This document shows positions 1-24,376 of a DNA stretch of 64,000 nt, piece by piece. The DNA lies in the NCBI GenBank assembly GCA_022340775.1, contig JAJDNH010000088.1, positions 13,464 through 77,463 on the forward strand, in the 5' to 3' direction. This DNA comes from Acidobacteriota bacterium. GTDB lineage: Bacteria > Acidobacteriota > Thermoanaerobaculia > Thermoanaerobaculales > Sulfomarinibacteraceae. The position numbers were made by a program, and so were the translations under genes. A model generated the notes under the pieces. It searched no databases. It saw only the letters and a program-made list of their open reading frames with translations, and was not told the origin of the DNA. The stretch's first letter is position 1. Every line of letters begins with the position of its first letter.

Positions 1-285
1 GCCGAGTACGTCCACCTGCGCGACCCGCGCGGCGCCGGCTTCGAGCCCACCCGGCTCACCTCCGGCTATAGCTGGAACCAGGGGATCGCCGTCTACGAGG
101 AGGTCCGCGACTCGGGCGAGAACTTCTTCTTCGAGCAGCTTCCCGCCGGCCAGTACACGTTCACCTACCGCCTGCGCGCTGCCACTGCCGGCACCTTCCG
201 CGTCGGCCCCGCAACGCTGCAGTCGATGTACGCCCCGGAGTTCACGGCCTACTCGTCCGGCGCCCTGCTGAAGGTCACGCAGTGA
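1..285 (+). CDS. alpha-2-macroglobulin family protein, C-terminal fragment (5' end outside window)
   Basis: Frame 1 is open from base 1 to TGA 283-285. The tail GFEPTRLTSGYSWNQGIAVYEEVRDSGENFFFEQLPAGQYTFTYRLRAATAGTFRVGPATLQSMYAPEF resembles the conserved C-terminus of bacterial alpha-2-macroglobulins. It is absent from the ORF track because it has no start in the window. Confidence 0.65.
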   Translation, partial: AEYVHLRDPRGAGFEPTRLTSGYSWNQGIAVYEEVRDSGENFFFEQLPAGQYTFTYRLRAATAGTFRVGPATLQSMYAPEFTAYSSGALLKVTQ

Positions 286-307
286 GGTCCACCGAGCGAG
301 CCGTCCC

Positions 308-411
308 GTAGGCGGGTGCTTCAGCGCCCGCCCCCAAGATCGTCGGGCGAGCCCGGTAAGACCTGGTCCCGCCGGAGGAGTCTGGGGGCGCGCCCTGAAG
401 GACGCGCCTAC
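308..411 (+). repeat. REP-doublet (REPIN-like) element, copy 1
   Basis: Left arm is GTAGGCGGGTGCTTCAGCGCCCGCC. The right arm reads GTAGGCGCGTCCTTCAGGGCGCGCC on the opposite strand. A ~50-nt spacer separates them. Near-identical copies lie at 7393, 9107, 14475 and 24273. Confidence 0.85.
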
Positions 412-450
412 CAACTCCTTTTTTTGGTGGCAGGGGGCGTCTCGCCCGCT

Positions 451-582
451 GGGGTGGGCGGGGGAGCGTTCCCCTTCTCCCGTCTCCCGTTTCCCTTCCC
501 GGTCGGGCGGGGGCACGTCTCGCGTCTTACGTCTCGCGTCTAGCGATCTCCGGGCGGGCGGGGATCTCCGTCGCTCCCTCCA
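451..582 (+). repeat. G-box/tandem-word cassette array (3 modules), preceded by conserved hairpin at 431-451
   Basis: GGGGTGGGCGGGGG is followed by a CCGTYTC-type word run. GGGCGGGGG is followed by a GTCTCGC/GTCTAGC word run. GGGCGGGCGGGG is followed by a CTCCGTC-type run. The same cassettes recur in other intergenic gaps. Confidence 0.8.
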
Positions 583-624
583 CCTGTATAGTGGACGCAG
601 CCACGGCATCCAGGGGAGGAGCGC

Positions 625-1914
625 ATCGCACACCTGACCGTACGATCGGCCTACCGCCGCCTGACCGACCGGATCAACCGGTTTCCGCAGGGCGCGCCGC
701 CCTCCCACCTGCTCTACCAGATCCTGGAGCTGCTCTTCTCCGAGGAGGAGGCGGAGCTGGTCTCGCTGCTGCCGATCCGCCCCTTCACCGTCTCTACCGC
801 GGCCCGGGCGTGGAAGAAGAACGAGGCGGAGGCGCAGGCTGTCCTCGACAACCTGGCGTCGAGGGGGATCCTGCTGGACATCGTTTCCGAGCGCACCGGT
901 ACCACCCGCTACGTGCTGCCGCCGCCGATGGCGGGGTTCTTCGAGTTTTCCATGATGCGGGTGCGGGACGACCTCGATCAGAAGCTGCTGTCCGAGCTCT
1001 ACTACCAGTACATCACGGTCGAGGACGACTTCATCAAGGCTCTTTTCACCAAAGGAGAAACCCAGCTGGGGAGGACCTTCGTCAACGAGAGGGCGCTCCC
1101 CGCGGAGCCGTCGCTGGAGGTACTCGACTACGAGCGGGCCACCCAGGTGATCCGCACCGCCTCCCACATCGGCGTCGGGGTCTGTTACTGCCGGCACAAG
1201 GCGCAGCACCTCGGAGAGGCCTGCGACGCCCCGATGAACATCTGCATGACCTTCAACGCCGTGGCCGCCTCCCTGACCCGCCACGGGGTCGCCCGCACCA
1301 TCGACCGCTCCGAGTGCATGGACCTGCTCGACCTGGCCCGCGATGAGAACCTGGTCCAGTTCGGCGAGAACGTGCGAGAGGGGGTGAGCTTCATCTGCAA
1401 CTGCTGCGGCTGCTGCTGCGAGGCGATGATCGCGGCGCGGCGGTTCGGCATGCTGCACCCGGTCCACACCACCAACTACCTGCCCGAGGTCGACACCGAG
1501 GCCTGTGCCGGCTGCGGCAAGTGCGCCGAGGTCTGTCCCGTCGAGGCCATGGGCACGGTGTCCGCCAACGACCCGCACAAGCCCAAGCGGAAGATGGCCC
1601 GTCTCGACACCGACATCTGCCTCGGCTGCGGCGTGTGCGTCCGCACCTGCCCGTCATCCGCCCTCAGGCTGGTGCCCCGAGCCCAACGGGTGCTGCCGCC
1701 GCTGAGCGGCACCCACAAGGCCGTGGTGATGGCGATCGAGAGAGGCAAGCTGCAGAACCTGATCTTCGACCACGGTGCCCTCGCCAGCCACCGCGCCATG
1801 GCGGCCATCCTCGGCGTGGTGCTGAAGCTGCCTCCCGTGAAACAGGCCCTCGCGTCCCGGCAGCTCCAGTCACGCTACCTGGAGCGCCTCATCGCCCGCT
1901 ACGACGACCACTGA
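625..1914 (+). CDS. 4Fe-4S dicluster domain protein with CNCCGCCC cysteine cluster; start codon uncertain
   Basis: The track ORF 913..1914 carries CAGCGKCAEVCP and CLGCGVCVRTCP ferredoxin motifs plus FICNCCGCCCEAM. The frame is open and protein-like back to 592 (AYRRLTDRINRFPQGAPPSHLLYQILELLFSEEEAELVSLLP) but has no ATG/GTG/TTG. SD GGGGAGGAG at 613-621 precedes ATC 625. GTG 913 is the first canonical start. Confidence 0.7.
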   Translation: MAHLTVRSAYRRLTDRINRFPQGAPPSHLLYQILELLFSEEEAELVSLLPIRPFTVSTAARAWKKNEAEAQAVLDNLASRGILLDIVSERTGTTRYVLPPPMAGFFEFSMMRVRDDLDQKLLSELYYQYITVEDDFIKALFTKGETQLGRTFVNERALPAEPSLEVLDYERATQVIRTASHIGVGVCYCRHKAQHLGEACDAPMNICMTFNAVAASLTRHGVARTIDRSECMDLLDLARDENLVQFGENVREGVSFICNCCGCCCEAMIAARRFGMLHPVHTTNYLPEVDTEACAGCGKCAEVCPVEAMGTVSANDPHKPKRKMARLDTDICLGCGVCVRTCPSSALRLVPRAQRVLPPLSGTHKAVVMAIERGKLQNLIFDHGALASHRAMAAILGVVLKLPPVKQALASRQLQSRYLERLIARYDDH

Positions 1915-1925
1915 GGCCGCGCCCA

Positions 1926-2050
1926 CCAACCCCCTTCTTTGGTGGCAGCGGGCGTCTCGCCCGCTGGTGTGGGTGGGGCACCGATGAAGCTGCTACCGCG
2001 GGGATTCGCGAGCCCCCCACCCGGGCAGGCGGGACGCCGCCCCCACCACG
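1926..2050 (+). repeat. Conserved hairpin element (1946-1966, CAGCGGGCG-TCT-CGCCCGCTG) plus degenerate G-/C-boxes
   Basis: CCAACCCCCTTCTTTGGTGGCAGCGGGCGTCTCGCCCGCTGGTGTGGGTGGGG matches the segments that follow the REP doublets at 412-460, 2604-2653, 9211-9262 and 14578-14628. Confidence 0.7.
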
Positions 2051-2078
2051 ATCAGGGGTCGCGAGTGAATGATGCGGG

Positions 2079-2318
2079 CTAGAGCCCTTCGATGAGTGCA
2101 TCCCGGCTCTCACCTTTGTGGGCAGCTACGGCGCGCAGCACGGCCGCCAATGTGCCGACACGGAGAGGATGATGGTCGGGTACCACAACGCGGTGGCAAC
2201 TTGGCTCGGAAGTCTCCAGGACCACGTGGCTCCCGACCTGGTGAATCCTGTGATACCCCCATCTCCGACAGAGATGGCGGATCAGTTCCTCGCCATCCAG
2301 ATTCCGCGGCAGCTTCAT
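2079..2318 (-). CDS. hicA: type II toxin HicA (mRNA interferase)
   Basis: 79 aa with LPRNLDGEELIRHLCRRWGYHRIHQVGSHVVLE, typical of the HicA/YcfA fold. It overlaps the upstream antitoxin gene by 4 nt. Confidence 0.8.
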   Translation of the reverse strand: MKLPRNLDGEELIRHLCRRWGYHRIHQVGSHVVLETSEPSCHRVVVPDHHPLRVGTLAAVLRAVAAHKGESRDALIEGL

Positions 2319-2527
2319 CCTACGGCGATCAGCTCGTCGCGCCTCAGGTGCAACCTGACGGCAGAAGGCTTCTCGTCATCGAAGAAGTAGGCACTGACGG
2401 CTTCGAGGACGCTGGCGCGAAGCTCATCCCAGGTGTCCCCCTGAGTGAAGATCGGCTCCGTGAGACACTCGGCCACGAAGCCGCCATCCACCTCCTGCAT
2501 GACATCGAACACCAGCTCACTCTTCAT
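2315..2527 (-). CDS. hicB: HicB-like antitoxin (short form, no obvious DNA-binding domain)
   Basis: 70 aa starting MKSELVFDVMQEVDGGFVAECLTEPIFTQGDTWDEL, which resembles the HicB/UPF0150 N-domain. It is coupled to hicA through an ATGA overlap. Confidence 0.7.
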   Translation of the reverse strand: MKSELVFDVMQEVDGGFVAECLTEPIFTQGDTWDELRASVLEAVSAYFFDDEKPSAVRLHLRRDELIAVG

Positions 2528-2533
2528 GAAGCC

Positions 2534-2567
2534 ATTGTAGGTGCAATGGCCGAGCTGGTCGAGCCAA
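2534..2567 (-). promoter_or_regulatory. Putative hicBA promoter with inverted repeat; possibly leaderless
   Basis: On the minus strand the sequence reads TCGACC-N17-TACAAT-GGCTTC-ATG. There is no SD before the ATG. CCATTG-N6-CAATGG overlaps the -10. Confidence 0.3.
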
Positions 2568-2575
2568 AGCGGCCC

Positions 2576-2603
2576 GGGGGCGCGCCCTGAAGGACGCGCC
2601 TAC
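2576..2603 (+). repeat. Solo right-arm REP (truncated REP doublet)
   Basis: GGGGGCGCGCCCTGAAGGACGCGCCTAC is identical to the right arm of the full elements. The left arm and spacer are missing and hicBA lies directly to the left. Confidence 0.75.
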
Positions 2604-2653
2604 CAACGCCATTCTTTGGTAGCAGCGGGCGTCCCGCCCGCTGGGGTGGGTGG

Positions 2654-2741
2654 GTACGTCTGCAGCGGCAAGACCGGTCATCCCGAGCACCCCAAAGTGT
2701 CATCCTGATGAGGGAGCGCAGCGACCGAAGAAGGATCTGGG
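2654..2741 (+). repeat. ~88-nt intergenic element E3, copy 1
   Basis: GTACGTCTGCAGCGGCAAGACCGGTCATCCCGAGCACCCCAAAGTGTCATCCTGATGAGGGAGCGCAGCGACCGAAGAAGGATCTGGG is nearly identical to 14629-14716. A diverged inverted partial copy lies at 24178-24240. Confidence 0.8.
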
Positions 2742-3030
2742 TGGGCGGGGGTCTCCGTCACCGGGTGGGCGGGGGAACCTCATCACCTAATCACTCAATC
2801 ACTTAATTACCGGGTGGGCGGGGGGAGCGTCCCCCGTCTCCCGTTTCCCGTCTTCCCTCCCGGGCGGGGGGGGCACGTCTCGCGTCTCGCGTCTCGCGTC
2901 TTGCGCTCTTCCGGGTGGCCGGGGCCTCCGTCACTTCATCACTCCGTCACTCCGTCACCGGGTGGGCGGGGGCACGTCTCGCGTCTTGCTTCTCGCGTCT
3001 AGCGATCTCCCCGGGCGGGCGGGGGGGCTG
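2742..3030 (+). repeat. G-box/tandem-word cassette array (about 7 modules)
   Basis: Successive CCGGGTGGGCGGGGG-like boxes are each followed by a cassette. The cassettes here are CTCCGTCAC, CCTCATCACCTAATCACTCAATCACTTAAT, CCCGTCTCCCGTTTCCCGTCTTCCC and GTCTCGCGTCTCGCGTCTCGCGTCTTGCG. Confidence 0.85.
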
Positions 3031-3070
3031 CCCCCACAACGGTCAGTGGAGCGCAAGTGAGTGACGCGGT

Positions 3071-3724
3071 CTACTCGTACCTGTGGAACAGCGATTGGTG
3101 CCTCAGCTCGATCATCTCCGGACGGCCCCCGGCCATGTAGACGCGGGTCACGCAGCACCCGAGCGAGGGCACGGGGCAGCTGCTGAGCTCCAGGCAGTCC
3201 CCTCCCACCATCCAAGAGGAGCGGTAGAGGTTGCGGAGCTGCCCGACGTCCATGTCGGTCAGAGGCCGACCGTCGACCTTCAACGGCAGCAGGGTCGCGA
3301 AGTGAGCGCGGGCGCCGGCGGCCATCAGCGGCATGCGCGGAGCGATCACCAGCTGCAACGGGATCACCACCGACGTGACCGCCCACTCGGCGCTGGGCTT
3401 GGTCTCCTGCTGACCCCGGTAGTCGGGATGCGTGAAAACGCCAAACCCGCGGTCCGGCCAGAAGAAGAACGTGTGACCGCCGTCCGCCTCCTGGACGGTC
3501 GCGGCCTTGCCGTACGCCGCCTCCCACGAGCTGAGAGGGTCGAGCACCCGCGGCGCGCCGCTCGGCCGTGAGTCCAGGAACGCCCTGCCGACGGCGCCGT
3601 GCCGGGCGAGAAGGCACGGCAGCAGCACGACGAACGCGCCGACGAGGAAGATAGCGATCACGACCCAGAGGACCTGCTTCCCGAACCCGCCGCGCCTGCC
3701 GGTCTCGCTTCGCTCTTCTTGCAT
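3071..3724 (-). CDS. hypothetical membrane-anchored protein
   Basis: Start is trimmed to ATG 3724, preceded by GGAGGAC. One N-terminal TM helix (VLWVVIAIFLVGAFVVLLPCLL) is present. No family recognised. Confidence 0.55.
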   Translation of the reverse strand: MQEERSETGRRGGFGKQVLWVVIAIFLVGAFVVLLPCLLARHGAVGRAFLDSRPSGAPRVLDPLSSWEAAYGKAATVQEADGGHTFFFWPDRGFGVFTHPDYRGQQETKPSAEWAVTSVVIPLQLVIAPRMPLMAAGARAHFATLLPLKVDGRPLTDMDVGQLRNLYRSSWMVGGDCLELSSCPVPSLGCCVTRVYMAGGRPEMIELRHQSLFHRYE

Positions 3725-3909
3725 CACGTCCTCCAATCCCCAACTCCCGCACTGCCCGGTGTCAACGAACGGTGGCCGCGGGGTACGCCTCGGCCGCCTG
3801 TGCGCCGACGGCAGGGCCCCGCAGGCCGAGCAGGAGTCCACCGCACTTGGAAGTCATATCCCGAGTATATCGCCGGCCGGCCTGGCCGCAAGGACGCTGA
3901 GACGGGGTC

Positions 3910-3939
3910 TTGACAATCGACTGTTCTGAGCATATGCTC
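3910..3939 (+). promoter_or_regulatory. Sigma-70-type promoter with overlapping 12-bp palindrome, upstream of the DUF134 operon
   Basis: TTGACA (3910-3915), N17, TATGCT (3933-3938). The perfect palindrome GAGCATATGCTC (3928-3939) covers the -10. Confidence 0.55.
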
Positions 3940-3955
3940 GAAACAGGGAGGGAAC

Positions 3956-4357
3956 TTGGCACGACCGGAGAAGCTCAGAAAGGTCGGTTGGGACGGCGAG
4001 GTCAGCGGCTTCAAGCCGGTCGGTGTACCGGCCTCCGGGCTCCAGGTCGAGACCCTGCGTCTCGACGAGCTCGAGGCCCTTCGCCTCGCCGACATGGAGG
4101 GCCTCTACCAGGAAGCCGCCGCCGAGCAGATGGGAATCTCGCGGCAAACCTTCGCGCGCGTTCTCGGCCGTGCGCGATCAACCGTCGCCAGGGCCGTCGT
4201 CGAGGGCAAGCTCCTGGTGATCGGCGAAGGCCCGGTCGTCACCAGATCCGACGGCACGATCCCGTGCCCGGTTCACGGGATGGGCCGCAGACGGGGTCGT
4301 GGCTGCCGCTGTGGCAGCGGCCGCGGGCGGCACGGACACGGCGCGGACCGGCGCTGA
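3956..4357 (+). CDS. DUF134 (UPF0251) putative DNA-binding protein
   Basis: TTG start after GGGAGGG. The segment RLDELEALRLADMEGLYQEAAAEQMGISRQTFARVLGRARSTVARAV is a sigma-70 region-4-like HTH typical of DUF134. Confidence 0.75.
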   Translation: MARPEKLRKVGWDGEVSGFKPVGVPASGLQVETLRLDELEALRLADMEGLYQEAAAEQMGISRQTFARVLGRARSTVARAVVEGKLLVIGEGPVVTRSDGTIPCPVHGMGRRRGRGCRCGSGRGRHGHGADRR

Positions 4358-4374
4358 GAAAAGGAGGAACGACA

Positions 4375-4782
4375 ATGCCTGGAGGAGACAGAACCGGACC
4401 GAGGGGAACCGGACCGATGACGGGCTGGGGCCGCGGCTACTGCGGCGGCTCGGCGCCCGCGCGCGGCTTCGGAGGGGCCTACGGCGGCCGCGGCCGCGGG
4501 GCGGCCTGGGGCCGGGGCGGGGGCGGCGGCAGGGGCTGGCGTCACCGCTTCTGGGCCACCGGTGAGCCCGGCTGGGCCCGCGGCCGCTGGGGCTTCCCCG
4601 AGCTCATCGAAGACGAGCCGCCGCCGGCAACCGAGAAGCAGTACCTCGCCGAGCGCCGCCGGCTCCTCAGGTCCGAGCTGCAGGCCATCAAGATGCGGCT
4701 GAACGAGCTCGACGCCGCCGAGGCCGAGGGCCACGGAACAACCGGGCGCCAGGCGCCCCCCGACGAAGGTGAGCAGGAATGA
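4375..4782 (+). CDS. DUF5320 domain protein (Gly/Arg-rich N-terminus, C-terminal coiled coil)
   Basis: ATG 4375 follows AAGGAGGA. MPGGDRTGPRGTGPMTGWGRGYCGG and GRGWRHRFWATGEPGWARG match my recollection of DUF5320. Confidence 0.7.
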   Translation: MPGGDRTGPRGTGPMTGWGRGYCGGSAPARGFGGAYGGRGRGAAWGRGGGGGRGWRHRFWATGEPGWARGRWGFPELIEDEPPPATEKQYLAERRRLLRSELQAIKMRLNELDAAEAEGHGTTGRQAPPDEGEQE

Positions 4783-5141
4783 AGATCGTCCTGACGGCAA
4801 CCGGTGAGGTTCTGGACAGCCAACTCGATCCGCGTTTCGGGCGGGCACCCTGGTTCATCCTGGTCGACACGGACAGCGGCGACATACAGACGGTCGAGAA
4901 CTCCTCAGGAGTCGAGGCGGAGCAGGGCGCGGGCGTCCAGGCGGCCGAGGTCGTGTCTCGTCTCGGCGCCCAGTGCGTGGTCACCGGGCACTGCGGCCCG
5001 AGGGCGTTTCGCGCCCTACAGGCGGCGGGGATCGAGGTCTTCACCGGCGCGTCCGGAACCGTGGCCGAGGCCGTCGAGCAGCTCAAGGCCGGCGCGCTCG
5101 AGAAGGCGCACGGCCCCGACGTGGTGGGACACTGGGCTTGA
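4779..5141 (+). CDS. NifB/NifX-family (Nitro_FeMo-Co domain) cluster-binding protein
   Basis: MKIVLTATGEVLDSQLDPRFGRAPWFILVDTDSG and VVTGHCGPRAFRALQAAGIEVF. ATGA overlap with the upstream gene. Confidence 0.75.
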   Translation: MKIVLTATGEVLDSQLDPRFGRAPWFILVDTDSGDIQTVENSSGVEAEQGAGVQAAEVVSRLGAQCVVTGHCGPRAFRALQAAGIEVFTGASGTVAEAVEQLKAGALEKAHGPDVVGHWA

Positions 5142-6022
5142 GGGTCGCCATCGCCTCCGGCAAGGGCGGCACCGGCAAGACGACCGTGGCAGTCAACCTG
5201 GCCCTGAGCCTGCCGGGCCGGGTGCAGCTCCTCGACTGCGACGTCGAAGCGCCCAACGTCCACCTCTTCCTGCACCCCTCGGTCGAGATCAGCGAGCCGG
5301 CGGGAATCCCGGTGCCGGTCGTCGACCCGGAGCTCTGCAACAACTGCGGCGAGTGCAGCCGGCTCTGCCAGTACAACGCCATCGTCAGCCTGAGCACCGG
5401 CACTCTCGTCTTCCCCGAGCTGTGCCACGGCTGCGGGGGTTGCGCCCTGATCTGCCCCGAGCGCGCCATCACCGAGAAGCTGCGCCCGATCGGGGTCGTC
5501 GAGCAGGGGACGGCGCGAGGGTTGCGGACCGTGCACGGGTGCCTCAACGTCGGCGAGGCCCTGGTGCCGCCGCTCATCCGCCAGGTCAGGGCGAAGGCGG
5601 ACCCGGAGGCGATCGTCCTGATCGACGCGCCGCCCGGCACCTCGTGCCCGATGATCACCGCGGTTCGCGGCTGCGACTACGTCATCCTGGTCACCGAGCC
5701 GACCCCCTTCGGCCTCAACGACCTGGGGCTCGCGGTCGAGGCGGTGCGGGCGCTCGGCATCCCGTGCGGCATCGTCGTCAACCGCGTCGGCATCGGGGAC
5801 GGCCGCGTGCACGACTACTGCGCCGCCGAGAACCTCGAGATCCTGCTCGAGATCCCTGACGACCGCCGGGTTGCCGAGGCGTACGCCCGCGGCATCCCAA
5901 CGCTCGACGCTGTGCCGGAGCTGCGTTCCCGGTTCTTGCAGCTGGCGAGCCGCCTGCGGAACCGGCTGCCGCGAGCAGCCGATGCGGCTCTTCAAAAAGG
6001 AGGCGCGCGTGCCCACCTATGA
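5138..6022 (+). CDS. MinD/ParA-type P-loop ATPase with inserted 2x[4Fe-4S] ferredoxin domain
   Basis: TTG 5138 overlaps the upstream stop (TTGA). Motifs are IASGKGGTGKTT, CNNCGECSRLCQYNAI and CHGCGGCALICPERAI. Confidence 0.8.
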   Translation: MRVAIASGKGGTGKTTVAVNLALSLPGRVQLLDCDVEAPNVHLFLHPSVEISEPAGIPVPVVDPELCNNCGECSRLCQYNAIVSLSTGTLVFPELCHGCGGCALICPERAITEKLRPIGVVEQGTARGLRTVHGCLNVGEALVPPLIRQVRAKADPEAIVLIDAPPGTSCPMITAVRGCDYVILVTEPTPFGLNDLGLAVEAVRALGIPCGIVVNRVGIGDGRVHDYCAAENLEILLEIPDDRRVAEAYARGIPTLDAVPELRSRFLQLASRLRNRLPRAADAALQKGGARAHL

Positions 6023-6263
6023 GTACCTGTGCACCAAGTGCGGACAGCGGTTCGACCTCTTCCAGTCCATGTCCGCGCCGCCGGCTGAGAGCTGTCCGGA
6101 GTGCGGCGGACCGGTCGAGCGCCAGATCGGCGCCGGCGCCGCCATCCTGGTCAGGGGCGGAAGCCGCGAGACCCGCGGCCAACGGGCCGCGGCCTGCGAC
6201 CGCTCGACGCCCTGCTGCGGGCGCGACGAGCGCTGTGACGCCCCACCCTGCGGGGAGCGCTGA
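6009..6263 (+). CDS. FmdB-family zinc-ribbon protein (CxxC...CxxC)
   Basis: GTG 6009 follows AAGGAGG. PTYEYLCTKCGQRFDLFQSMSAPPAESCPECGG. It overlaps the upstream gene by 14 nt. Confidence 0.75.
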   Translation: MPTYEYLCTKCGQRFDLFQSMSAPPAESCPECGGPVERQIGAGAAILVRGGSRETRGQRAAACDRSTPCCGRDERCDAPPCGER

Positions 6264-7231
6264 TGGCGCCCCCGGCGGCCCCGCTGCCCCTGGTCGAGAG
6301 CCAGGCCGACGCCGCCCACGTCCCGGAGCTGGTGGTCATCAGCGGCAAGGGCGGCACCGGCAAGACCAGCGTCGTCGGCTCGTTCGCGGCGCTGGCTGAC
6401 AACCTGGTCCTGGCCGACTGCGACGTCGACGCCGCCGACCTCCACCTCGTCCTGGCACCCGAGATCCGCGAACGGAACCTCTTCGTCGGCGGCCACGAGG
6501 CCAGGGTCCGCGAGGCCGACTGCACGGCTTGCAGGGTGTGCCGCGAGGTCTGCCGGTTCGACGCCATCGGTTGTGATCCCGACACCGGGATCTGCACGGT
6601 CGACCCGATCGCGTGTGAAGGCTGCGGCGTCTGCGTCGAGCAGTGCCCGGAGCAGGCCATCGACTTCCCGGCCCGCACCTGCGGCGAGTGGTTCGTCTCC
6701 TCGACAGCCTCCGGCCCGATGGTCCACGCCCGGCTGGGAATCGCGGCCGAGAACTCCGGCAAGCTGGTCACCCTGGTGCGCCGCGAGGCCAAGCGCATCG
6801 CCGCCACCAGCGGCCGAGCGGGGATTCTGGTCGACGGCCCGCCCGGGGTCGGCTGTCCGGTCATCGCCGCACTCTCCGGCGCCACCCGGGTGCTCGTCGT
6901 CACCGAGCCCACCGTCTCGGGGGAGCACGACCTCGAGCGCGTTCTCCAGCTCGTCAAGCACTTCGGCATCCCGGCCGCGGTCTGCGTCAACCGCTGGGAC
7001 ATCCACCCCGAAGGAACCGCACGCATCGAGGACCGGGCCCGCGAGCACGGCGTGACCCTGTTCGCGAAGATCCGCTACGACACCGCCGTGACCTCGGCAC
7101 AGGTGCAGGGCAGGCCGGTCGTCGAGCTCGGCGGCCCGGCCGCCGACGACATCCGGGAGCTGTGGGAGCGGGTGGAAGCGTGGTGGGATGGAGGGGAACC
7201 CCCGCCTACCCAACCGGAGGTGAGAAAGTAA
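6263..7231 (+). CDS. MinD/ParA-type P-loop ATPase with 2x[4Fe-4S] ferredoxin domain (second paralog)
   Basis: ISGKGGTGKTSV, CTACRVCREVCRFDAI and CEGCGVCVEQCPEQAI. TGATG overlap with fmdB. The last codons and stop lie inside a repeat cassette. Confidence 0.8.
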   Translation: MAPPAAPLPLVESQADAAHVPELVVISGKGGTGKTSVVGSFAALADNLVLADCDVDAADLHLVLAPEIRERNLFVGGHEARVREADCTACRVCREVCRFDAIGCDPDTGICTVDPIACEGCGVCVEQCPEQAIDFPARTCGEWFVSSTASGPMVHARLGIAAENSGKLVTLVRREAKRIAATSGRAGILVDGPPGVGCPVIAALSGATRVLVVTEPTVSGEHDLERVLQLVKHFGIPAAVCVNRWDIHPEGTARIEDRAREHGVTLFAKIRYDTAVTSAQVQGRPVVELGGPAADDIRELWERVEAWWDGGEPPPTQPEVRK

Positions 7232-7312
7232 GGAAGTGAGAAAGTGAGGAGGTCCCTCCCGCCCACCCGGGGGAATCGTAAGACGCGAGACGTGCCCCCA
7301 CCCGCCCGGGGG
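7215..7312 (-). repeat. G-box/word cassettes, inverted orientation
   Basis: GGAGGTGAGAAAGTAAGGAAGTGAGAAAGTGAGGAGG is the reverse of the CTCACC-type words. It is followed by CCCGCCCACCC and GACGCGAGACG (reverse of GTCTCGC words) and CCCACCCGCCC. Confidence 0.75.
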
Positions 7313-7392
7313 ACTTAGCGACAGCGCGCTCCAAAGACAGGCTGCGCTCGTACGGCCGTGCCAGGTGCAGAGGCTCAGCTACATGAGGCCCC

Positions 7393-7496
7393 GTAGGCGG
7401 GTGCTTCAGCGCCCGCCCCCGAGATCCTCGGACGAGCCCGGTGACACCTGGTCCGGCTGGAGAAGCCTGGGGGCGCGCCCTGAAGGACGCGCCTAC
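7393..7496 (+). repeat. REP-doublet (REPIN-like) element, copy 2
   Basis: Same arms as 308-411; spacer variant GAGATCCTCGGACGAGCCCGGTGACACCTGGTCCGGCTGGAGAAGCCT. Confidence 0.85.
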
Positions 7497-7529
7497 GTCC
7501 GGCTACGGCGGCCGCCACGGGGTCACTCA

Positions 7530-7600
7530 TCCCCGCCCGCTGGGGCAGTCGGGCGTTTCCCGTTTCCCGTTTCCCGTCTTCCTTCCCGGCCGGGCGGGTG
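7530..7600 (+). repeat. G-box/word cassette (CGTTTCC run)
   Basis: CCCGCCCGCTGGGGCAGTCGGGCGTTTCCCGTTTCCCGTTTCCCGTCTTCCTTCCCGGCCGGGCGGGTGA. Confidence 0.7.
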
Positions 7601-7677
7601 ACCCCCTTGAAACAAGTGCTAGACTCAATCTCGGTTCATGACGGAAGCCGAGATGCGGCGGCTTACGGGAGGCTCAG

Positions 7678-9033
7678 ATGCGCAAGGTCCTCGGTATCGC
7701 CCTGCTGACGATGTCCATGTCCTACGTCGCGACGGGCGCGACCCTCAAGCTCGACGCGAAAACCTACGTCCCCGGCACCCCGGTCACGGTGCAGTTCACG
7801 GCGCCGCCCGGCCTGTCCGGCAACGCCTGGATCGGCATCATCCCGTCCAACATCCCGCACGGGGACGAGGCGGTCAACGACGCCAACGACGTCGACTACC
7901 AGTACCTCGGAGGCAAGACCTCCGGATCGATGACCTTCACCGCGCCGAGCAAACTCGGCGCCTGGGACGCGCGCCTCAACGACGGCGGCGGGAAGGAGCT
8001 CGCCTCGGTCTCGTTCACCGTCAAGCCGGTGGATGCCAGCGGCGCGTCGCTGACCCTCGCCGCCACCACGGCCGCGCCGGGCGCCCCGATGACGGTCACC
8101 TTCAAGGCCCCGGCCGGGATGCCCAAGGAAGCCTGGATCGGGGTCGTACCCGCCACCGTTCCTCACGGCGACGGTGCAACCATCGACCAGTACGACGTCG
8201 ACTACACGTACCTGGAGGGAAAGACCTCCGGCAGCTGGAGCTTCACGGCCCCCGGGAAGACCGGAGCCTGGAACGTCCGCATGATCGACGCCGGCAGCAA
8301 CGGCCGCGAGATCGCCTCAGCGGACTTCACGGTGCAGCGGGTGGACGCGAGCGAGGCCTCGCTACGCCTCGATCGCACGACCGTGCCGGTCGGCCAGGAG
8401 TTCGCGGTCCACTTCACCGCCCCGAAGGGGCTGCCCGAGAACGCCTGGGTGGGGATCATCCCGTCCAACGTGCCGCACGGCGACGAGGAGACCAACGACC
8501 AGCACGACGTCGACTACCAGTACCTCAAGGGCCGCACCGACGGTACCCTCACCTTCCGCGCGCCGGCCCAGGCGGGCGCCTACGACCTGCGGATGAACGA
8601 CACCGACTCCAACGGCAAGGAGATTGCCTCGACCAGCTTCACGGTCGGCGGCGAGCTCTCCAGCAAGGAGATGGCCGCCACGCTGGCGAGCTCCGGCAAG
8701 CTCTCGATCTACGGCATCCACTTCGCCACCGACTCCGCCAAGATCGAACCCGACTCGAAGCGGCCTCTGGCCGAGATCGGCCAGCTCCTGATCCGCGACC
8801 CGAACCTGCGCCTGCTCATCGAGGGCCACACCGACTCCACCGGCGAGGCCGCACACAACCAGGAGCTGTCGCAGCGCCGCGCCGAGTCCGTCAAGAGCTA
8901 CCTGGTGGAGACCTTCGGCATCGACGCCGCCCGCCTGGCGACCCGCGGCATGGGCGCCTCACAGCCGGTGGCCACCAACGACACCGACGCCGGCCGCGCC
9001 CTCAACCGCCGCGTGGAGCTCGTGCGACAGTAG
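7678..9033 (+). CDS. OmpA-family protein with three tandem ~105-aa N-terminal repeats
   Basis: Signal peptide present. Three paralogous units each contain AW(I/V)G(I/V)(I/V)P..(I/V)PHGD...DVDY.YL.G(K/R)T.G. The C-terminal OmpA_C domain reads IHFATDSAKIEP...LLIEGHTDSTGEAAHNQELSQRRAESVKSYL...NRRVELV. Confidence 0.85.
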   Translation: MRKVLGIALLTMSMSYVATGATLKLDAKTYVPGTPVTVQFTAPPGLSGNAWIGIIPSNIPHGDEAVNDANDVDYQYLGGKTSGSMTFTAPSKLGAWDARLNDGGGKELASVSFTVKPVDASGASLTLAATTAAPGAPMTVTFKAPAGMPKEAWIGVVPATVPHGDGATIDQYDVDYTYLEGKTSGSWSFTAPGKTGAWNVRMIDAGSNGREIASADFTVQRVDASEASLRLDRTTVPVGQEFAVHFTAPKGLPENAWVGIIPSNVPHGDEETNDQHDVDYQYLKGRTDGTLTFRAPAQAGAYDLRMNDTDSNGKEIASTSFTVGGELSSKEMAATLASSGKLSIYGIHFATDSAKIEPDSKRPLAEIGQLLIRDPNLRLLIEGHTDSTGEAAHNQELSQRRAESVKSYLVETFGIDAARLATRGMGASQPVATNDTDAGRALNRRVELVRQ

Positions 9034-9106
9034 CGCGACCAGCGCGCCAGAGCCGGAGTCGCTCAAGCGGGCGTACTCACAGCACTTTTGATGGGCAAGA
9101 GGTGTC

Positions 9107-9210
9107 GTAGGCGGGTGTTTCGGCGCCCGCCCCCGACATCCTCGGGCGAGCTCGGTGACAGCTGGTCCCGCTGGAGAAGCCTGGGGGCGCACCCTGAAGG
9201 ACGCGCCTAC
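9107..9210 (+). repeat. REP-doublet (REPIN-like) element, copy 3
   Basis: The left-arm loop variant is TTTCGG instead of CTTCAG, with the stem intact. The right-arm stem carries a G to A change. Confidence 0.85.
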
Positions 9211-9395
9211 GCCAACTCTCTTCCGTGCCGGCAGCGGGCCTCCCGCCCGCTGGGCCGGGCGGGTTGTCGCTTCCCGTTTCTTCGGGTGGGCGGGCGGGAA
9301 ATTCTCACCTTCTGACTTCCTCACCTTCTCACCTCCTGCCGACTGGGCGGGCGGGCGCACGTCTCGCGTCTAGCGTCTCGCGTCTAGCGATCCCC
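9211..9395 (+). repeat. Hairpin (9232-9252) plus G-box/word cassette array
   Basis: CAGCGGGCCTCCCGCCCGCTG is followed by G-boxes with CCCGTTTC, TTCTCACCTTCTGACTTCCTCACCTTCTCACCTCC and GTCTCGCGTCTAGCGTCTCGCGTCTAGCG cassettes. Confidence 0.8.
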
Positions 9396-9551
9396 GGCAT
9401 CCACGGCCGCTCTCCACCGTCACCCGTTTGGGTGATGCAGACCAGCCCGCTTCGGCCCGACCTTGTCGAGGTCGTCGCGTTCGACTCACTCCCGGCCGGC
9501 CAACCGGCCGGGGTAACGGCCAACCACCTCTCGTAGGAAGGAGAGTGCACG

Positions 9552-10130
9552 ATGAAACCGACAGCGTCCCAGCCGAGACGGCGCTCCGGGGTACGGACAG
9601 GGGCGGCGGCTCTCGCCGCCATGGCGCTGGTCCTCCTCGCCGGGTGCACCACGGTCGCCATCAATCCCAACGACGGCAGCGCCCCCAACGTGACGATCAA
9701 GGTTCAGGGGCCCAACGGGTATCAGGTGGCGACCAGCACCAACTACGCCAACAGCTCGGCCCAGGAGCCGGTGAACATCATGTGCATCGTCGAGGACCCA
9801 CAGGGTGTCAAGTCGATCAACCTCCACGTCTCGGACGTCACGGTCGACGCCGTGAACTGTGGCGGAGCGATCTACTCCGGCAATTACTCGGTGAACGGTC
9901 TGCCGGCTCCGATATCCGACACCCTGTCAGGAGCCTCCGGCAAGGTGCCTACCAAGCTCTCTGGCATCATGCAGATCTCCGGAATCCTCGAAGCGCAGAA
10001 ACCGCTCGGGGTCACCAAGAAGTGCTACCCCGCCAACAACACGCACATCACGGTCCGGTGCCAGGGCGGCAACTGGGCGTCGAACGCCGCCGTCGCGACG
10101 GCGAGCACGACGCTGCAGGTCAACTTCTAG
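9552..10130 (+). CDS. hypothetical lipoprotein
   Basis: AAGGAG SD. Lipobox LLAGC after a signal peptide. No family recognised. Confidence 0.6.
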   Translation: MKPTASQPRRRSGVRTGAAALAAMALVLLAGCTTVAINPNDGSAPNVTIKVQGPNGYQVATSTNYANSSAQEPVNIMCIVEDPQGVKSINLHVSDVTVDAVNCGGAIYSGNYSVNGLPAPISDTLSGASGKVPTKLSGIMQISGILEAQKPLGVTKKCYPANNTHITVRCQGGNWASNAAVATASTTLQVNF

Positions 10131-10225
10131 GAGCGGTTCGCAACCGTCGGGCGGGTCGAGAGTGCAATGATGACGGAACTTCACGAAGCCCGAAAGGCGC
10201 CGTCCGCTCGATGGGCTCCGGGCTC

Positions 10226-11032
10226 CTAGAAGCTCATCACAATCGTCGTCCCGTAGACCACGGTGTCGGCCAGTCGTCCGTCGGGGTTGATGGAGTTCCC
10301 GTCGCTCACACGGCGGGCGGTGGAGGACAGTGGGAAGAAGTACTGAACCATGGGCTGGATGCTCCACCCCTCGGCCAGCGCGATCGTCAGTCCGGCCTTG
10401 AGCATCCCGTCGTGGAAATCGTGGTAGCGCTCGCCGGTGTAAGCGCCCTCGTTTGGATCGTAGGTCCTCCAGCAGTCATCGGAGCCGGCAAAGTAGCCGG
10501 CCGAGGCCCCGAGATCCAGGGAGACCGACTTCCCAAACGCCAGCGAGTGGCTCAGTGAGAGGTTGATGTAGGTCCCCGGATAGGAGCCCACGTCCCGATA
10601 GACCGTGAGCGTGGGCTTGCCGATGGTGTCGTACGACACGCCCAGCCACACCTCTTGTGTCTCGGTGGCGTACCTCGTCCCGTAGTAGATCCAGCCGGCG
10701 GTCGCCTCGAACCGCCCGACGGTCCGGGTGTAGCTGAGGCTGATGTCGGCCTCGTTGAAGCTCCCGTGTCCCGGACGATCAGGTTCGAAGGAGGGGGTGG
10801 CCTCCTCTTCGACGTCGATGTTTCCCCAGAAGGAAAGCGTGAACCCTCGGGTCGTGACGGCCAGCGAGGGCTGGATGACGCCGTTCTCCGCACCGAGCTC
10901 ATACCCGCGGAAGATGTACCGGTTGAAAAGACCCAGCGTCGCGCTCCCGGTAACGGGAGCCTCCTGCGCGAACAGGGCCGGGGTCGCGGTCGCGAGGACC
11001 AGCAGGACGAAAGCTACGAATCCTCTCTTCAC
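10226..11032 (-). CDS. TorF-family putative outer-membrane porin (beta-barrel)
   Basis: Signal peptide, FNRYIFRGYEL near the N-terminus, alternating beta-strand pattern and a C-terminal F. It lies immediately downstream of amt. Confidence 0.55.
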   Translation of the reverse strand: MKRGFVAFVLLVLATATPALFAQEAPVTGSATLGLFNRYIFRGYELGAENGVIQPSLAVTTRGFTLSFWGNIDVEEEATPSFEPDRPGHGSFNEADISLSYTRTVGRFEATAGWIYYGTRYATETQEVWLGVSYDTIGKPTLTVYRDVGSYPGTYINLSLSHSLAFGKSVSLDLGASAGYFAGSDDCWRTYDPNEGAYTGERYHDFHDGMLKAGLTIALAEGWSIQPMVQYFFPLSSTARRVSDGNSINPDGRLADTVVYGTTIVMSF

Positions 11033-11110
11033 GATGTCCTCCGCATCTGGAAGCCGGGCGAGTCGGGCGCCACCCCGGAGGGCGGCGCCGGCCCGCGTGC
11101 CCGAACGACC

Positions 11111-12325
11111 TCAATCGTGCATGTAGGCTTCCTCGCCGTGCAGGACGGCATCGAGCCCCATCTCCTCCTCCTCGGCGCTCAGCCGCACCGGGGTGATCTT
11201 GTCGATGACCGCCAGGGCCAGGTAGGAAAAGACGAACGCATAGGCGCTGAAACCGAGCACCCCGACGGCCTGCTTGAAGAAGAAGTCCGGGTTGCCGTGG
11301 AACAGGCCGTTGGCCCCGGCAGCGTTGACCGAGGTCGTGGCGAACAGCCCCAGCATCAGGATGCCGAGGGTGCCGCCCACGCCGTGCACGCCCCACACGT
11401 CCAGAGCGTCATCCCAGTGCATCCTGTTCTTGAGGTTGATGGCGCCGTAGCAGACCATGCCGGCGGCGATCCCGATCAGGACCGCCGTGCTCACCGTCAC
11501 ATAGCCCGCCGCCGGGGTAATGGTGGCGAGCCCCGCGATGGAGCCGGTGAGGAGGCCCAGGAACTTGGGCTTCTTCTCGAAGATCCAGGCCATGAACAGC
11601 CACGTGATGGCCGCGAACGAGGCGGCGATGTCCGTGTTGAGGAAGGCCAGGGTGGTGACGTGGTTCACGCTCAGCTCGCTGCCCGCGTTGAACCCATACC
11701 AGCCGAACCACAGCAGGCCCGTGCCGAGAGCGACCAGGGGGATGCTGTGCGGCCCCTTCTCCACCACCCTCCGCTTGCCGACGAAGAACACGCTGGCGAG
11801 GGCCGCCATGCCCGCGATGGCATGGACCACGATGCCGCCCGCGAAGTCGAGCACGCCCCACTTCTGCAGCAGGCCGCCGCCCCAGATCATGTGCACGGCA
11901 GGGAAGTAGACGAAGAGCAGCCACACCGTGAGGAAGATCATGTAGGGGGCGAACTTGACCCTGTTGGTGAAGGCCCCCGTGATGAGGGCAGGAGTGATGA
12001 TCGCGAACATCATCTGGTAGGCGACGAAAACCAGGAGCGGGATGTTGTTGGTTGAGGAGAACATCGCCGCCGGGTTCACCCCGTGCAGGAAGGCCATGTG
12101 GAGGTTCCCGATGATTCCCCCCACGTCGCCGGAGAAGCACATCGAGTAGCCGCAGACGAACCACAGCACCGACGTCCAGCCCATGGAGACGAAGCTCTGG
12201 ATCATGATGGCCAGCACGTTCTTGCGGCCCACCAGGCCGCCGTAGAAGAAGGCCAGCCCTGGTGTCATCAGCATCACCAGGCTGGTGGCCACCAGCATGA
12301 ACGCCGTATTGCCCGTGTCACACAT
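11111..12325 (-). CDS. amt: ammonium transporter (Amt family)
   Basis: Start is trimmed to ATG 12325 after AAAGGAGGA. Motifs TAFMLVATSLVMLMTPGLAFFYGGL, DFAGGIVVHAIAGMAAL and VHGVGGTLGILM. Confidence 0.9.
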   Translation of the reverse strand: MCDTGNTAFMLVATSLVMLMTPGLAFFYGGLVGRKNVLAIMIQSFVSMGWTSVLWFVCGYSMCFSGDVGGIIGNLHMAFLHGVNPAAMFSSTNNIPLLVFVAYQMMFAIITPALITGAFTNRVKFAPYMIFLTVWLLFVYFPAVHMIWGGGLLQKWGVLDFAGGIVVHAIAGMAALASVFFVGKRRVVEKGPHSIPLVALGTGLLWFGWYGFNAGSELSVNHVTTLAFLNTDIAASFAAITWLFMAWIFEKKPKFLGLLTGSIAGLATITPAAGYVTVSTAVLIGIAAGMVCYGAINLKNRMHWDDALDVWGVHGVGGTLGILMLGLFATTSVNAAGANGLFHGNPDFFFKQAVGVLGFSAYAFVFSYLALAVIDKITPVRLSAEEEEMGLDAVLHGEEAYMHD

Positions 12326-12585
12326 CGCCCGTTCCTCCTTTAGTGGGGCATCTCGCAAGAACGCCCCTCAAAGCTCAGCAGAATCGCAACGAGCGGACAA
12401 TCGGGAGAATCGGAAGGCGGCGCTTCGAAATACCTGGTGACGGCTTCGATGCCCCCGGGTGGGACACGGCAGCGGTCGGATGGGGCTAACGCAGCAGGCA
12501 GCGGCAGGATCGAGCTGTGAATCGATAGTCAGGGAGCAACGGCGATCGAGATCACCCGGCAGAGTGCCTACCGGCCGGCCTCGCC

Positions 12586-13233
12586 CTACAGCGTGGTGAT
12601 CCCCTCCCGGATGGCGTACTTGGTGAGCTCGGCGATCGAGTGGATGTCGAGCTTCTCCATGATCTGCTTGCGGTAGGTCTCCACGGTCTTGACGCTCAGG
12701 CTCAGGCGGGCGGCGATCTGCTTGGTGGCCAGCCCCTCAGCCAGCATCTGCAGGACCTCACGCTCCCGGGCGCTGAGACGAGAGAAGACGCTGGTTCCCT
12801 GATGCTCGAGGTGGCGGATGTAGTCCTTGACGACCGCGTCGACGATGGATGAGCTCAGGAACGCCCGGCCGCCCATCACGGTCCTGATCGCGGCCGCCAG
12901 CTCCTCGAACGCCGACTCCTTCAGCAGGTATCCGAGGGCGCCGACCTTCAGCGCCTCCGCGATGAAGCGCCCGTCGGCGTGCATCGAGAGAATGATGACG
13001 CGCACGCTCGGGTTCTTCTCCAGGATCAGGCGGGTGGCCTCGATCCCGTTGAGGCCCGGCATCGAGATGTCGAGGATGGCCACGTCCGGCGCCAGCTCGC
13101 GAGCCAGGGACTCGGCCGACAGACCGTCGGCGGCACGAGCGACCACCTGGTAGCCGGGGATTCTCTCGAGGAGGGTGGCCAGCCCGTCCACGACGATCTT
13201 GTGATCGTCCGCCAGCAGGATCCTCAGGCTCAC
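12586..13233 (-). CDS. NarL/LuxR-family response regulator
   Basis: REC domain (ILLADDHKIV...DVAILDISMPGLNG) plus a LuxR HTH (LSAREREVLQMLAEGLATKQIAARLSLSVKTVETYR). Confidence 0.9.
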   Translation of the reverse strand: MSLRILLADDHKIVVDGLATLLERIPGYQVVARAADGLSAESLARELAPDVAILDISMPGLNGIEATRLILEKNPSVRVIILSMHADGRFIAEALKVGALGYLLKESAFEELAAAIRTVMGGRAFLSSSIVDAVVKDYIRHLEHQGTSVFSRLSAREREVLQMLAEGLATKQIAARLSLSVKTVETYRKQIMEKLDIHSIAELTKYAIREGITTL

Positions 13234-14411: not shown

Positions 14412-14474
14412 TGTACGCCTTCCGCATGCCCTCCCGGGCGGGCGGGGCGCCGAGGCTCAGCCACAGGAGGTTCC

Positions 14475-14577
14475 GTAGGCGGGTGCTTCAGCGCCCGCCC
14501 CCACATCATCGGGCGAGCCCGGTAACACCTGGTCCCGCTGGAGAAGCCTGGGGGCGCACCCTGAAGGATGCGCCTAC
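14475..14577 (+). repeat. REP-doublet (REPIN-like) element, copy 4
   Basis: The right-arm stem carries a compensatory pair (GGCGCA...TGCGCC). A 1-nt deletion in the spacer is present relative to copy 2. Confidence 0.85.
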
Positions 14578-14628
14578 ACGACTCCGCTCCGTGGTGGCAG
14601 CGGGCGTCTCGCCCGCTGGGGCGGGCGG

Positions 14629-14716
14629 GTAGGTCTGCAGTGGCAAGGCCGGTCATCCCGGGCGCCCCAGAGTGTCATCCTGATGAGGGAGCGCAGCGAC
14701 CGAAGAAGGATCTGGG
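14629..14716 (+). repeat. ~88-nt intergenic element E3, copy 2
   Basis: Near-identical to 2654-2741. It is preceded by the hairpin at 14598-14618 (CAGCGGGCG-TCT-CGCCCGCTG). Confidence 0.8.
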
Positions 14717-14896
14717 CGGGCGGGGGCTCGTTTCCCTTTTCACGTTTCCCTTCCCGGGCGGGCGGGTGGTTGCCTCCGTCACTCCGTCACCGGCTGGGCG
14801 GGGGAGCGTTTCCCGTTTCCCGTCTCCCGTTTCCCTTCCTGGGCGGCTGGGGGCCGTCTCGCGTCTAGCTTCTAGCGTCTAGCGATCTCCCCGGGG
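14717..14896 (+). repeat. G-box/tandem-word cassette array (4 modules)
   Basis: Cassettes in order: CGTTTCCC, CTCCGTCACTCCGTCAC, CGTTTCCCGTTTCCCGTCTCCCGTTTCCC, GTCTCGCGTCTAGCTTCTAGCGTCTAGCG. Confidence 0.85.
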
Positions 14897-24272: not shown

Positions 24273-24376
24273 GTAGGCGCGTCCTTCAGGGCGCGCCCCC
24301 GGGCTTCTTCAACGGGACCAGGTGTCACCGGGCTCGCCCGACGACCTTGGGGGCGGGCGCTGAAGCACCCGCCTAC
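24273..24376 (-). repeat. REP-doublet (REPIN-like) element, copy 5, inverted
   Basis: Reverse complement of the consensus: it starts GTAGGCGCGTCCTTCAGGGCGCGCC and ends GGCGGGCGCTGAAGCACCCGCCTAC. Confidence 0.85.

Follow-up and report, generated by a model that had tools for sequence, protein, structure and literature searches.

A 64-kb stretch of contig JAJDNH010000088.1 from an uncultured member of the Sulfomarinibacteraceae (Acidobacteriota), referred to here in its full length as the window, carries a family of short palindromic repeats. These are repetitive extragenic palindromic (REP) sequences of the GTAG type, joined as head-to-head heterodimers in a form like that of REP doublets forming hairpins (REPINs) or bacterial interspersed mosaic elements (BIMEs). 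They belong to a known class and are ordinary in kind; what is new is the host clade, the uncultured Thermoanaerobaculia. To our knowledge, REP and REPIN systems have been characterized almost wholly in Proteobacteria, and a GTAG REP family in at least 27 uncultured Thermoanaerobaculia/Sulfomarinibacteraceae species extends this kind of element to a poorly known phylum. The anatomy of the doublets, taken together with the literature, makes it on balance probable that a REP-associated tyrosine transposase (RAYT) acting in trans mobilizes them as a single strand.

Five full doublets of 103-104 nt each and one truncated copy, comprising 11 arms in all, are confined to the first 24.4 kb of the window. 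GTAG REPs have been defined as having a small loop and a G+C-rich basal stem that is fully paired, with GTAG or GTGG at a distance of 0-2 nt from that stem (PMC3733652, PMC6006769). Each arm described here is a palindrome within the 20-40 nt range that forms a stem-loop with GTAG at the 5' foot of the stem, and the arms are multi-copy, dispersed and extragenic. The doublets in turn consist of an inverted REP pair with a short spacer and a predicted long hairpin, and five of them are found against a single truncated copy.

Anatomy and covariation of the arms

On the strand carrying GTAG, the arm reads 5'-GTA-[GGCGSGTSC]-TTCA-[GSGCSCGCC] over 25 nt and forms a G+C-rich stem of nine base pairs (positions 4-12 with 17-25) that begins with the G of GTAG, is capped by a TTCA tetraloop and contains a T10·G19 wobble as a fixed feature. 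An earlier reading of the window from sequence only had proposed a GTAG hairpin with an 8-bp stem and a CTTCAG loop; the hairpin stands, while its parts are better described by the longer stem, the smaller loop and the wobble. Left and right arms differ at positions 8, 11, 18 and 21, and these differences are compensatory within each arm but produce four mismatches when arm is paired with arm. The ends of the doublet are inverted repeats identical at 24 of 28 nt and are separated by a spacer of 54 nt.

A single arm has a predicted DNA fold of -10.5 kcal/mol, and on the opposite strand, which has an A·C mismatch in place of the wobble, the predicted values are -8.3 kcal/mol for the left and -10.2 kcal/mol for the right arm. 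For the whole 104-nt unit one long imperfect hairpin is predicted, at -27 to -38 kcal/mol as DNA (z-scores -1.5 to -5.3), and the predicted RNA fold lies at -58 to -70 kcal/mol (z-scores -3 to -6).

To this set we added arms from related genomes, giving a wider set of 204 arms with up to four mismatches from REP loci and the window. The stem is preceded by GTA in 188 of the 204 and by GTG+G in five, counts on which it bears that GTAG itself was part of the arm search pattern; the T10·G19 pair is retained in 193. Covariation was examined in the 130 arms that exactly matched a search pattern with N at positions 8, 11, 18 and 21. Of these arms, 128 have a Watson-Crick pair at 8/21 (GC in 99, CG in 29) and 128 have one at 11/18, a pair that occurs in four types (CG, AU, GC and UA). 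Double-sided changes are also present at pairs 7/22, 9/20 and 12/17. Among 58 distinct arms, six of the nine stem pairs show double-sided changes, 93.9% of cells are paired compared with 81.5% in shuffles and the covariation score is 0.331 compared with 0.108, neither value being reached in any of 500 shuffles; when the register was slid, just 31-51% of cells were paired.

In the right arm of the copy at 14475, read on its GTAG strand, G9-C20 is replaced by the compensatory pair A9-T20, and the copy at 9107 carries the one-sided intermediate G9·T20, so that both of these previously reported changes were recovered. The left arm of the 9107 copy has C12>T and A16>G; these had been taken as changes of loop bases only, but under the 9-bp stem the former converts the closing C-G pair to T·G. 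Divergence among the five copies is 3.2% for the 28-nt ends and 15.8% for the spacers, from which it follows that the copies are old and that the arms are constrained or homogenized.

Copies in the window

The five full copies given in the sequence-only reading (Table 1) were all confirmed by alignment, by pattern search and by a covariance model, and the alignment extends over 103-104 nt with sharp edges at GTAG...CTAC. When the window was searched with the arm pattern GTAGGCGSGTSCTTCAGSGCSCGCC at a tolerance of three mismatches, 11 arms were recovered, and 100 shuffles that preserved dinucleotide composition yielded none. The 58 distinct arms of the wider set also served to build a covariance model; applied to the entire window with filters off, it detects the same 11 arms and no others at 34-44 bits (E values of 5e-7 or lower), the next match reaching 14.5 bits. 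As the complementary strand of each arm site reaches only ~13 bits, the element has a clear strand polarity. The 1-nt spacer indel noted earlier in the copy at 14475 is a deletion.

The sixth copy had been listed as a solo right arm at 2576-2603. The arm is present, though its proper extent is 2579-2603, or 2572-2603 with the GGGGG extension, and it represents a truncated doublet and not an independent REP. On the side of the lost half it borders directly on the start of a toxin-antitoxin cassette of the hicA type (2079-2527, - strand), and the arm together with ~150 nt beyond it, comprising two further repeat modules described below as B and C, is homologous to 14546-14725.

A map of third-position G+C places every window copy between genes, and the non-coding status assigned to these elements is further borne out by the wider set, in which 197 of 204 arms lie outside coding-like open reading frames (ORFs) though such ORFs cover 63% of the bases. 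In the window, three copies lie 23-160 nt past a + strand stop codon, the nearest being the copy at 308, which starts 23 nt past the stop of a gene with a bMG10 domain; of the other two, one has convergent genes on either side and one is in a divergent region. Comparison of the flanks of the five copies revealed no direct repeat indicative of a target-site duplication. Searches against Rfam were negative, both for the entire window at gathering scores and for bases 1-26000 at E values up to 1.

Distribution in related genomes

Further copies in other genomes were sought with the arm pattern GTAGGCGNGTNCTTCAGNGCNCGCC, one genome being scanned per species, and the same arm was found in at least 101 stretches of 8 kb from 27 species-level metagenome-assembled genomes (MAGs). 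Of the 27 assemblies listed, 23 are labeled Acidobacteriota, Thermoanaerobaculia, Thermoanaerobaculales or Candidatus Sulfomarinibacteraceae, and Ca. Sulfomarinibacter kjeldsenii is among them. Identity between orthologous genes of the arm-bearing species extends down to ~72%, and the locus L056 is ~94% identical to the window across 5 kb, which assigns the window to this clade. Exact matches to a window protein were found in metagenome contigs only, and a scan of 2.9 million viral contigs yielded no arm.

Neighboring arms in the wider set form 41 GTAG-outside and 36 GTAG-inside dimers, with a start-to-start spacing of 44-135 nt in both types, and alternating REP arrays are present at some loci (L016, L070). 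Most dimers are heterodimers whose partners carry compensatory stem changes, for example GGGTCC/GGGCCC with GGGTCG/CGGCCC; the doublet of the window is of this kind, a GTAG-outside heterodimer with a 54-nt spacer. Dimer spacers are alike within one genome and different between genomes, and in locus L030, from the MAG of a close relative, identical arms surround a wholly different spacer. The genes flanking the sites of the wider set are convergent in 21 cases, tandem in 39 and divergent in 8, which amounts to a deficit of promoter-only regions, and at least one gene 3' end adjoins 88% of the sites compared with 75% expected.

Turnover against close relatives

Occupancy was compared with locus L111 (JGI Ga0315556_1000045), which is collinear with window positions 1-15,800 at 89-94% identity. 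In this presence/absence comparison, suggested at the outset, L111 has a doublet at only one of four comparable sites, the equivalent of 7393-7496, where 2 of 104 positions differ. This is the sole copy common to the two relatives L111 and L056 (93-94% identical), from which it differs by 1-2 nt. At the site corresponding to 308, the stop codon in L111 is followed by a short linker and then by module B, the doublet alone being gone in a nearly precise absence. At the sites corresponding to 9107 and 14475 the doublet and the neighboring repeat modules are absent and shorter unrelated sequence stands in their place, and at 9107 a 192-aa ORF is missing as well. Occupancy therefore changes fast relative to gene divergence, mostly through larger events. 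Because the spacers of the paralogs are more diverged than those of the shared orthologue, some of the differences may be losses in L111 and not gains in the lineage of the window. Two further contigs reached through orthologues of a DUF4386 gene (L108 and L109) are not syntenic with the window and contain no arms.

Two side observations concern the same intergenic regions. The DNA just upstream of the shared doublet (window 7200-7399) is 99.5% identical to L111, and the neighboring genes are 90-96% identical, a pattern that, judged by identity alone, points to constraint or to recent recombination over this tract. The cassette against the truncated doublet consists of a hicA-type toxin gene (PF07927, 2079-2318, - strand) and a small upstream ORF (2320-2527), and at its position L111 (2270-3090) and L056 (7300-8000) have different, unrelated small cassettes, a difference suggesting that cassettes have been exchanged at this REP-rich site between genes.

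Y1 transposases of the clade

In agreement with the sequence-only reading, the window contains no Y1 transposase or RAYT that could be found in six-frame ORFs by regular-expression searches for the HUH and Y...NP motifs, by tblastn, by phmmer or by profile hidden Markov models (HMMs). The RAYT queries, namely E. coli RayT, a clade profile HMM, and E. coli RayT combined with the clade profile HMM, covered the window and at least 110 loci. The sole candidate from the motif search in REP-centered loci is L046 4116-4694, which scores 82.2 bits against the NCBIfam model REP_Tyr_transpos (cut-off 80) and also matches Pfam Y1_Tnp. Between this candidate and a GTAG-inside REP dimer 0.9 kb away stands an unrelated gene; full-length relatives of the candidate are ~326 aa long.

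Three such full-length genes, found on long contigs, are each bounded by a perfect 28-bp inverted repeat, GGTGCCAGGTCAGRCGATTCCGACGATT, which also forms small gene-less doublets and flanks a degenerate, internally deleted gene copy (Table 1). TIR-associated tyrosine transposases (TIRYT, named for their terminal inverted repeats), including an acidobacterial group, were described by Di Nocera et al. 2013 (PMC3733652), and Y1 genes of subclass 2.1 were reported to have no REPs nearby (Quentin et al. 2018, PMC6006769). The Y1 genes of the clade are the TIRYT of the former study and the subclass 2.1 of the latter, which they resemble in a length of ~326 aa, in a Y1_Tnp domain with a C-terminal extension and in long inverted repeats that also form doublets; their repeats, GGTGCCAGGTCAGRCGATTCCGACGATT, bear no relation to the GTAG REPs. 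Neither the window, searched at up to three mismatches, nor the 101 REP loci contain a match to the TIRYT repeat GTGCCAGGTCAGRCGAT, and no GTAG REP arm lies within 10 kb of the three full-length genes, although another TIRYT-type gene is located on the same 809-kb contig as the REP locus L034. When aligned with E. coli RayT, for which the residues contacting GTAG are listed in PMC6006769, the TIRYT genes of the clade conserve W94 and Q95 and have E100, H101 and R104 replaced by T, R and D. As a separate observation, the tetranucleotide GTAG occurs 6-8 nt inside the upstream 28-bp repeat in all three full-length genes.

Probable mobilization, host function and alternative explanations

We consider it probable, on balance, that the doublet is a non-autonomous element. 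An HUH/Y1 RAYT encoded elsewhere in the genome would copy or move it as single-stranded DNA, reading the hairpin and cutting at the GTAG foot. Such a single-strand Y1 mechanism would account for the lack of target-site duplications, for the strand polarity of the hairpins and for the retention of the arms while the spacers drift. Resident copies, which are mostly downstream of genes, probably also serve as RNA or DNA hairpins that the host tolerates or uses.

Several results weigh against mobilization by a RAYT in trans. The sequence-only reading had called these elements REPs recognized by RAYTs; they have the structure of REP doublets on every tested feature, while recognition and mobilization by a RAYT were not confirmed. 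A RAYT gene flanked by these REPs was not found in 944 kb of window and related DNA, a sample that amounts to at most a few tens of kb per genome, in which about one REPtron is expected by our estimate, and that is too thin for claiming absence. No inverted arm pairs at the spacing of a RAYT gene surround a transposase in the loci, and the widely spaced arm pairs that were inspected (1.8-3.4 kb) enclose ordinary genes only. Clustering of 765 coding-like ORFs from the REP loci gave no protein family recurring beside the arms, and the Y1 genes that were found (L046, L105-L107, the degenerate copy at L107 11113-11712 and a fragment in L020) are all of the TIRYT type. Spacers of the window paralogs differ pairwise by 10-21% and thus give no sign of recent copying in the window, and two of the three empty sites in L111 are larger replacements without clean excision or insertion. 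Finally, arms better conserved than spacers are also expected under a purely host-selected function.

That function forms a serious alternative or complement, though as a full explanation we regard it as rather unlikely. In this case the palindromes would be maintained by the host without a dedicated transposase, as stabilizers of RNA 3' ends, attenuators or protein-binding sites in DNA, and would spread only as intergenic blocks are recombined or duplicated, a RAYT, if there ever was one, having long been lost. It would also explain the conserved arms and their position downstream of genes. It is in keeping with the failure to find a REP-flanked RAYT in ~0.94 Mb, with an arm conservation five times that of the spacers, with the excess of gene 3' ends beside the sites (88% compared with 75% expected), with the 99.5% identity of the shared copy and its upstream intergenic DNA to a relative whose neighboring genes are ~94% identical, and with the duplication of an arm, module B and module C as one block (2572-2750 and 14546-14725); moreover, REPtrons are missing from some REP-bearing species (PMC3733652). 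On the other hand, a GTAG-tagged sequence of 25 nt is kept in at least 27 species, whose orthologous genes may share as little as ~72% identity; such retention has been described as characteristic of REP-RAYT systems inherited vertically, and the conservation of the T·G wobble and the GTAG foot as sequence, beyond pairing, points to a sequence-reading protein. The arms are also not followed by a terminator-like T tract, and the sampling for RAYT genes, as noted, is far too thin for claiming absence. An intrinsic terminator was rejected as well, since a terminator-like call was obtained at no arm. The 326-aa TIRYT-type (subclass 2.1) transposases might instead mobilize the doublets in trans despite their different terminal repeats, as the proximity of the L046 gene to a GTAG-inside dimer and its REP_Tyr_transpos score, the contig shared with L034 and the conserved W94 and Q95 would allow. 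This is improbable, given that these genes have their own 28-bp repeats with their own doublets and degenerate copies, that these repeats are absent from the window and the 101 REP loci, that no GTAG REP lies within 10 kb of the full-length genes, that three contact residues are replaced and that subclass 2.1 genes lack nearby REPs in the literature (PMC6006769). An orphan GTAG REP system, in which the 25-nt hairpin with its fixed T·G wobble persists clade-wide with no REP-flanked RAYT and is kept either by host selection or by trans-mobilization through the TIR-type (subclass 2.1) Y1 enzymes, is a doubtful proposition; if true, it would mean that GTAG REPs can be uncoupled from classical REPtrons.

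Two explanations of another kind carry little weight. A structured non-coding RNA gene or cis-regulatory RNA would fit the strong predicted RNA folds and the location of most copies downstream of genes with a single polarity, and is nevertheless very improbable: Rfam gave no match within the limits stated above, the spacers are poorly conserved among paralogs and fully replaced in L030 between identical arms, and neither orientation nor gene context is uniform, as copies are found both ways round and between divergent, tandem and convergent genes. A miniature inverted-repeat transposable element (MITE) that derives from a DDE-type insertion sequence and has the 28-nt arms for terminal inverted repeats is suggested by the 24 of 28 identical end positions and by a unit of ~100 nt. 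It has next to no probability and we exclude it, since none of the five copies has a target-site duplication and each end is itself a palindrome with internal covariation. In addition, the arms differ in ways that preserve each local hairpin yet disrupt the pairing of one arm with the other, relatives have single arms and GTAG-inside dimers as often as GTAG-outside dimers, and no transposase family recurs beside the arms.

Associated repeats and other features of the window

Module B consists of the hairpin CAGCGGGCGTCTCGCCCGCTG followed by GGGGYGGGCGGG and stands 15-20 nt past a right arm in four places. Besides the copy in Table 1, it is found at 2623-2643, 9232-9252 and 14598-14618, at 1946-1966 with no full REP, and in L111 at ~1981-2001. 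Its absence from all loci other than the window and L111 assigns it to the lineage of the window and not to the REP family. The copy at 1946 is preceded by an apparent remnant of half a REP arm, CCACTGAGGCCGCGCCCACCAAC, which overlaps the stop codon at 1912-1914. Module C, of ~90 nt (GTCTGCAGYGGCAAG...GTCATCCTGATGAGGGAGCGCAGCGACCGAAGAAGGATCTGGG), occurs at 2658-2750 and 14632-14725 with an identical 39-nt core and as an inverted, diverged copy at ~24160-24235, and was found in no other locus. A hammerhead ribozyme was considered for module C on account of CTGATGAG...CGAA and was rejected, as there was no Rfam match at E values up to 1 and no stem II could be drawn.

Nearly every longer intergenic region of the window contains heptamer blocks, in which a G-rich box (approximately CCGGGYGGGCGGGGG) is followed by 3-5 tandem units of 7-8 nt drawn from the set CGTTTCC/CGTCTCC, CGTCTCG/CGTCTAG, CTCACCT, CTCCGTCA and ACCTAATC. 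The blocks are strung together, in part as higher-order repeats (39996-40316, with periods of 53 and 135), and similar units are present in a few loci of related MAGs (L030, L077, L081, L102). We know of no repeat class that matches a G-rich box with heptamer blocks. Within the block at ~9297, a metagenome contig of the same strain (L002, 2043-2119) has a 72-nt insert of long G and C runs, which may be a true polymorphism in length or else an artefact of assembly.

Three genes of the window have features of their own. A ferredoxin-domain gene (591-1914) is apparently split over two frames, as ORFs 591-1346 and 913-1914, with coding-like third-position G+C from 592; the product of 913-1914 has no record in the assembly collection, and the split could be due to a frameshift, a pseudogene or an assembly error. 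An OmpA-family protein gene contains, at 7735-8645, two segments of ~600 nt, offset by ~300 nt, that are 67% identical, and the gene at 21684-23150 has a 39-nt unit repeated 5.5 times at 22758-22989.

Table 1. Coordinates of the REP doublets, the associated repeats and the TIRYT-type elements (window positions unless a locus is named)
Feature	Position	Strand	Remarks
REP doublet copy 1	308..411	+	left arm 308-332, spacer 333-386, right arm 387-411 (GTAG on - strand)
REP doublet copy 2	7393..7496	+	between + strand genes 6263-7231 and 7678-9033
REP doublet copy 3	9107..9210	+	74 nt past stop of OmpA-family gene
REP doublet copy 4	14475..14577	+	103 nt, 1-nt spacer deletion; divergent intergenic region
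REP doublet copy 5	24273..24376	- (inverted)	convergent genes either side
Truncated doublet	2572..2603	-	right arm 2579-2603 and its GGGGG extension remain
Module B hairpin CAGSGGGCGTCYCGCCCGCTG	431..451	+	15-20 nt past REP right arm
Heptamer blocks	440-541, 2739-2990, 7216-7250, 7554-7582, 9302-9389, 14774-14884, 21570-21618, 24476-24602, 39881-40340, 47311-47403, 51843-51949, 63364-63496		
TIRYT-type elements	L105 9915-10998; L106 9942-11011; L107 901-961, 4172-4232, 5309-6378, 11060-11720		326-aa Y1 transposase with 28-bp repeats, doublets, deleted copy

Comparison with known systems

The family provides a simple annotation model that can be used to mask spurious ORFs and to explain contig breaks in these MAGs, and its heterodimers, with their compensatory changes and fixed wobble, constitute a natural data set on what a RAYT reads. 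Should complete genomes prove to be without a REP-flanked RAYT, they would offer a test case for whether GTAG REPs can persist solely through a function in the host or with the help of another Y1 enzyme.

In organization the family resembles the GTAG REP families surveyed by Di Nocera, De Gregorio and Rocco 2013 (PMC3733652), which include head-to-head (HH) and tail-to-tail (TT) dimers, heterodimers, conserved HH spacers and a location downstream of genes. The arms share with these families a palindrome of 20-40 nt with GTAG at one end, a G+C-rich stem and a small loop. They likewise occur as singletons and as GTAG-outside (HH) and GTAG-inside (TT) dimers with spacers of 20-100 nt, as heterodimers that differ in stem residues and with HH spacers conserved within a genome, mostly downstream of genes. 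The differences are that Thermoanaerobaculia (Acidobacteriota) lie outside the surveyed families, that a REPtron was not found in the searched DNA, that the family of the window has a T·G wobble at a fixed stem position and that its doublet is habitually fused to local repeat modules.

Compared with the REPINs of Pseudomonas fluorescens SBW25 (Bertels and Rainey 2011, PMC3116915), the doublets are similarly composed of two inverted REPs which, with their spacer, can fold into a single long hairpin; they are more numerous than singlets, the lone arm is a decayed or truncated doublet, and the family persists across related genomes. In contrast, the REPIN was defined with a single-copy flanking RAYT, whereas none was found for the family of the window in the searched DNA, so that the family is only a putative member of a REPIN-RAYT system in the strict sense. 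The window copies are also old (16% spacer divergence) and do not form a tight cloud round a master sequence, and their arms are non-identical, forming heterodimers.

The REP and BIME sequences of E. coli and their RayT (TnpA_REP) provide a further point of reference. Enterobacterial BIMEs are pairs or arrays in which two REP types alternate in orientation; their linkers carry conserved motifs, and they are bound by IHF or gyrase. The stem in the window is shorter and without the internal bulge of enterobacterial REPs. The two systems have in common the start GTAGGC, the pairing of two REP types in inverted orientation and, in the relatives represented by L016 and L070, alternating arrays. Arm variants of the relatives also carry the loop motifs CGTTTACG and CGTTCACG, which by eye, with no statistic attached, resemble those of the Y-type REPs next to rayT in E. 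coli.

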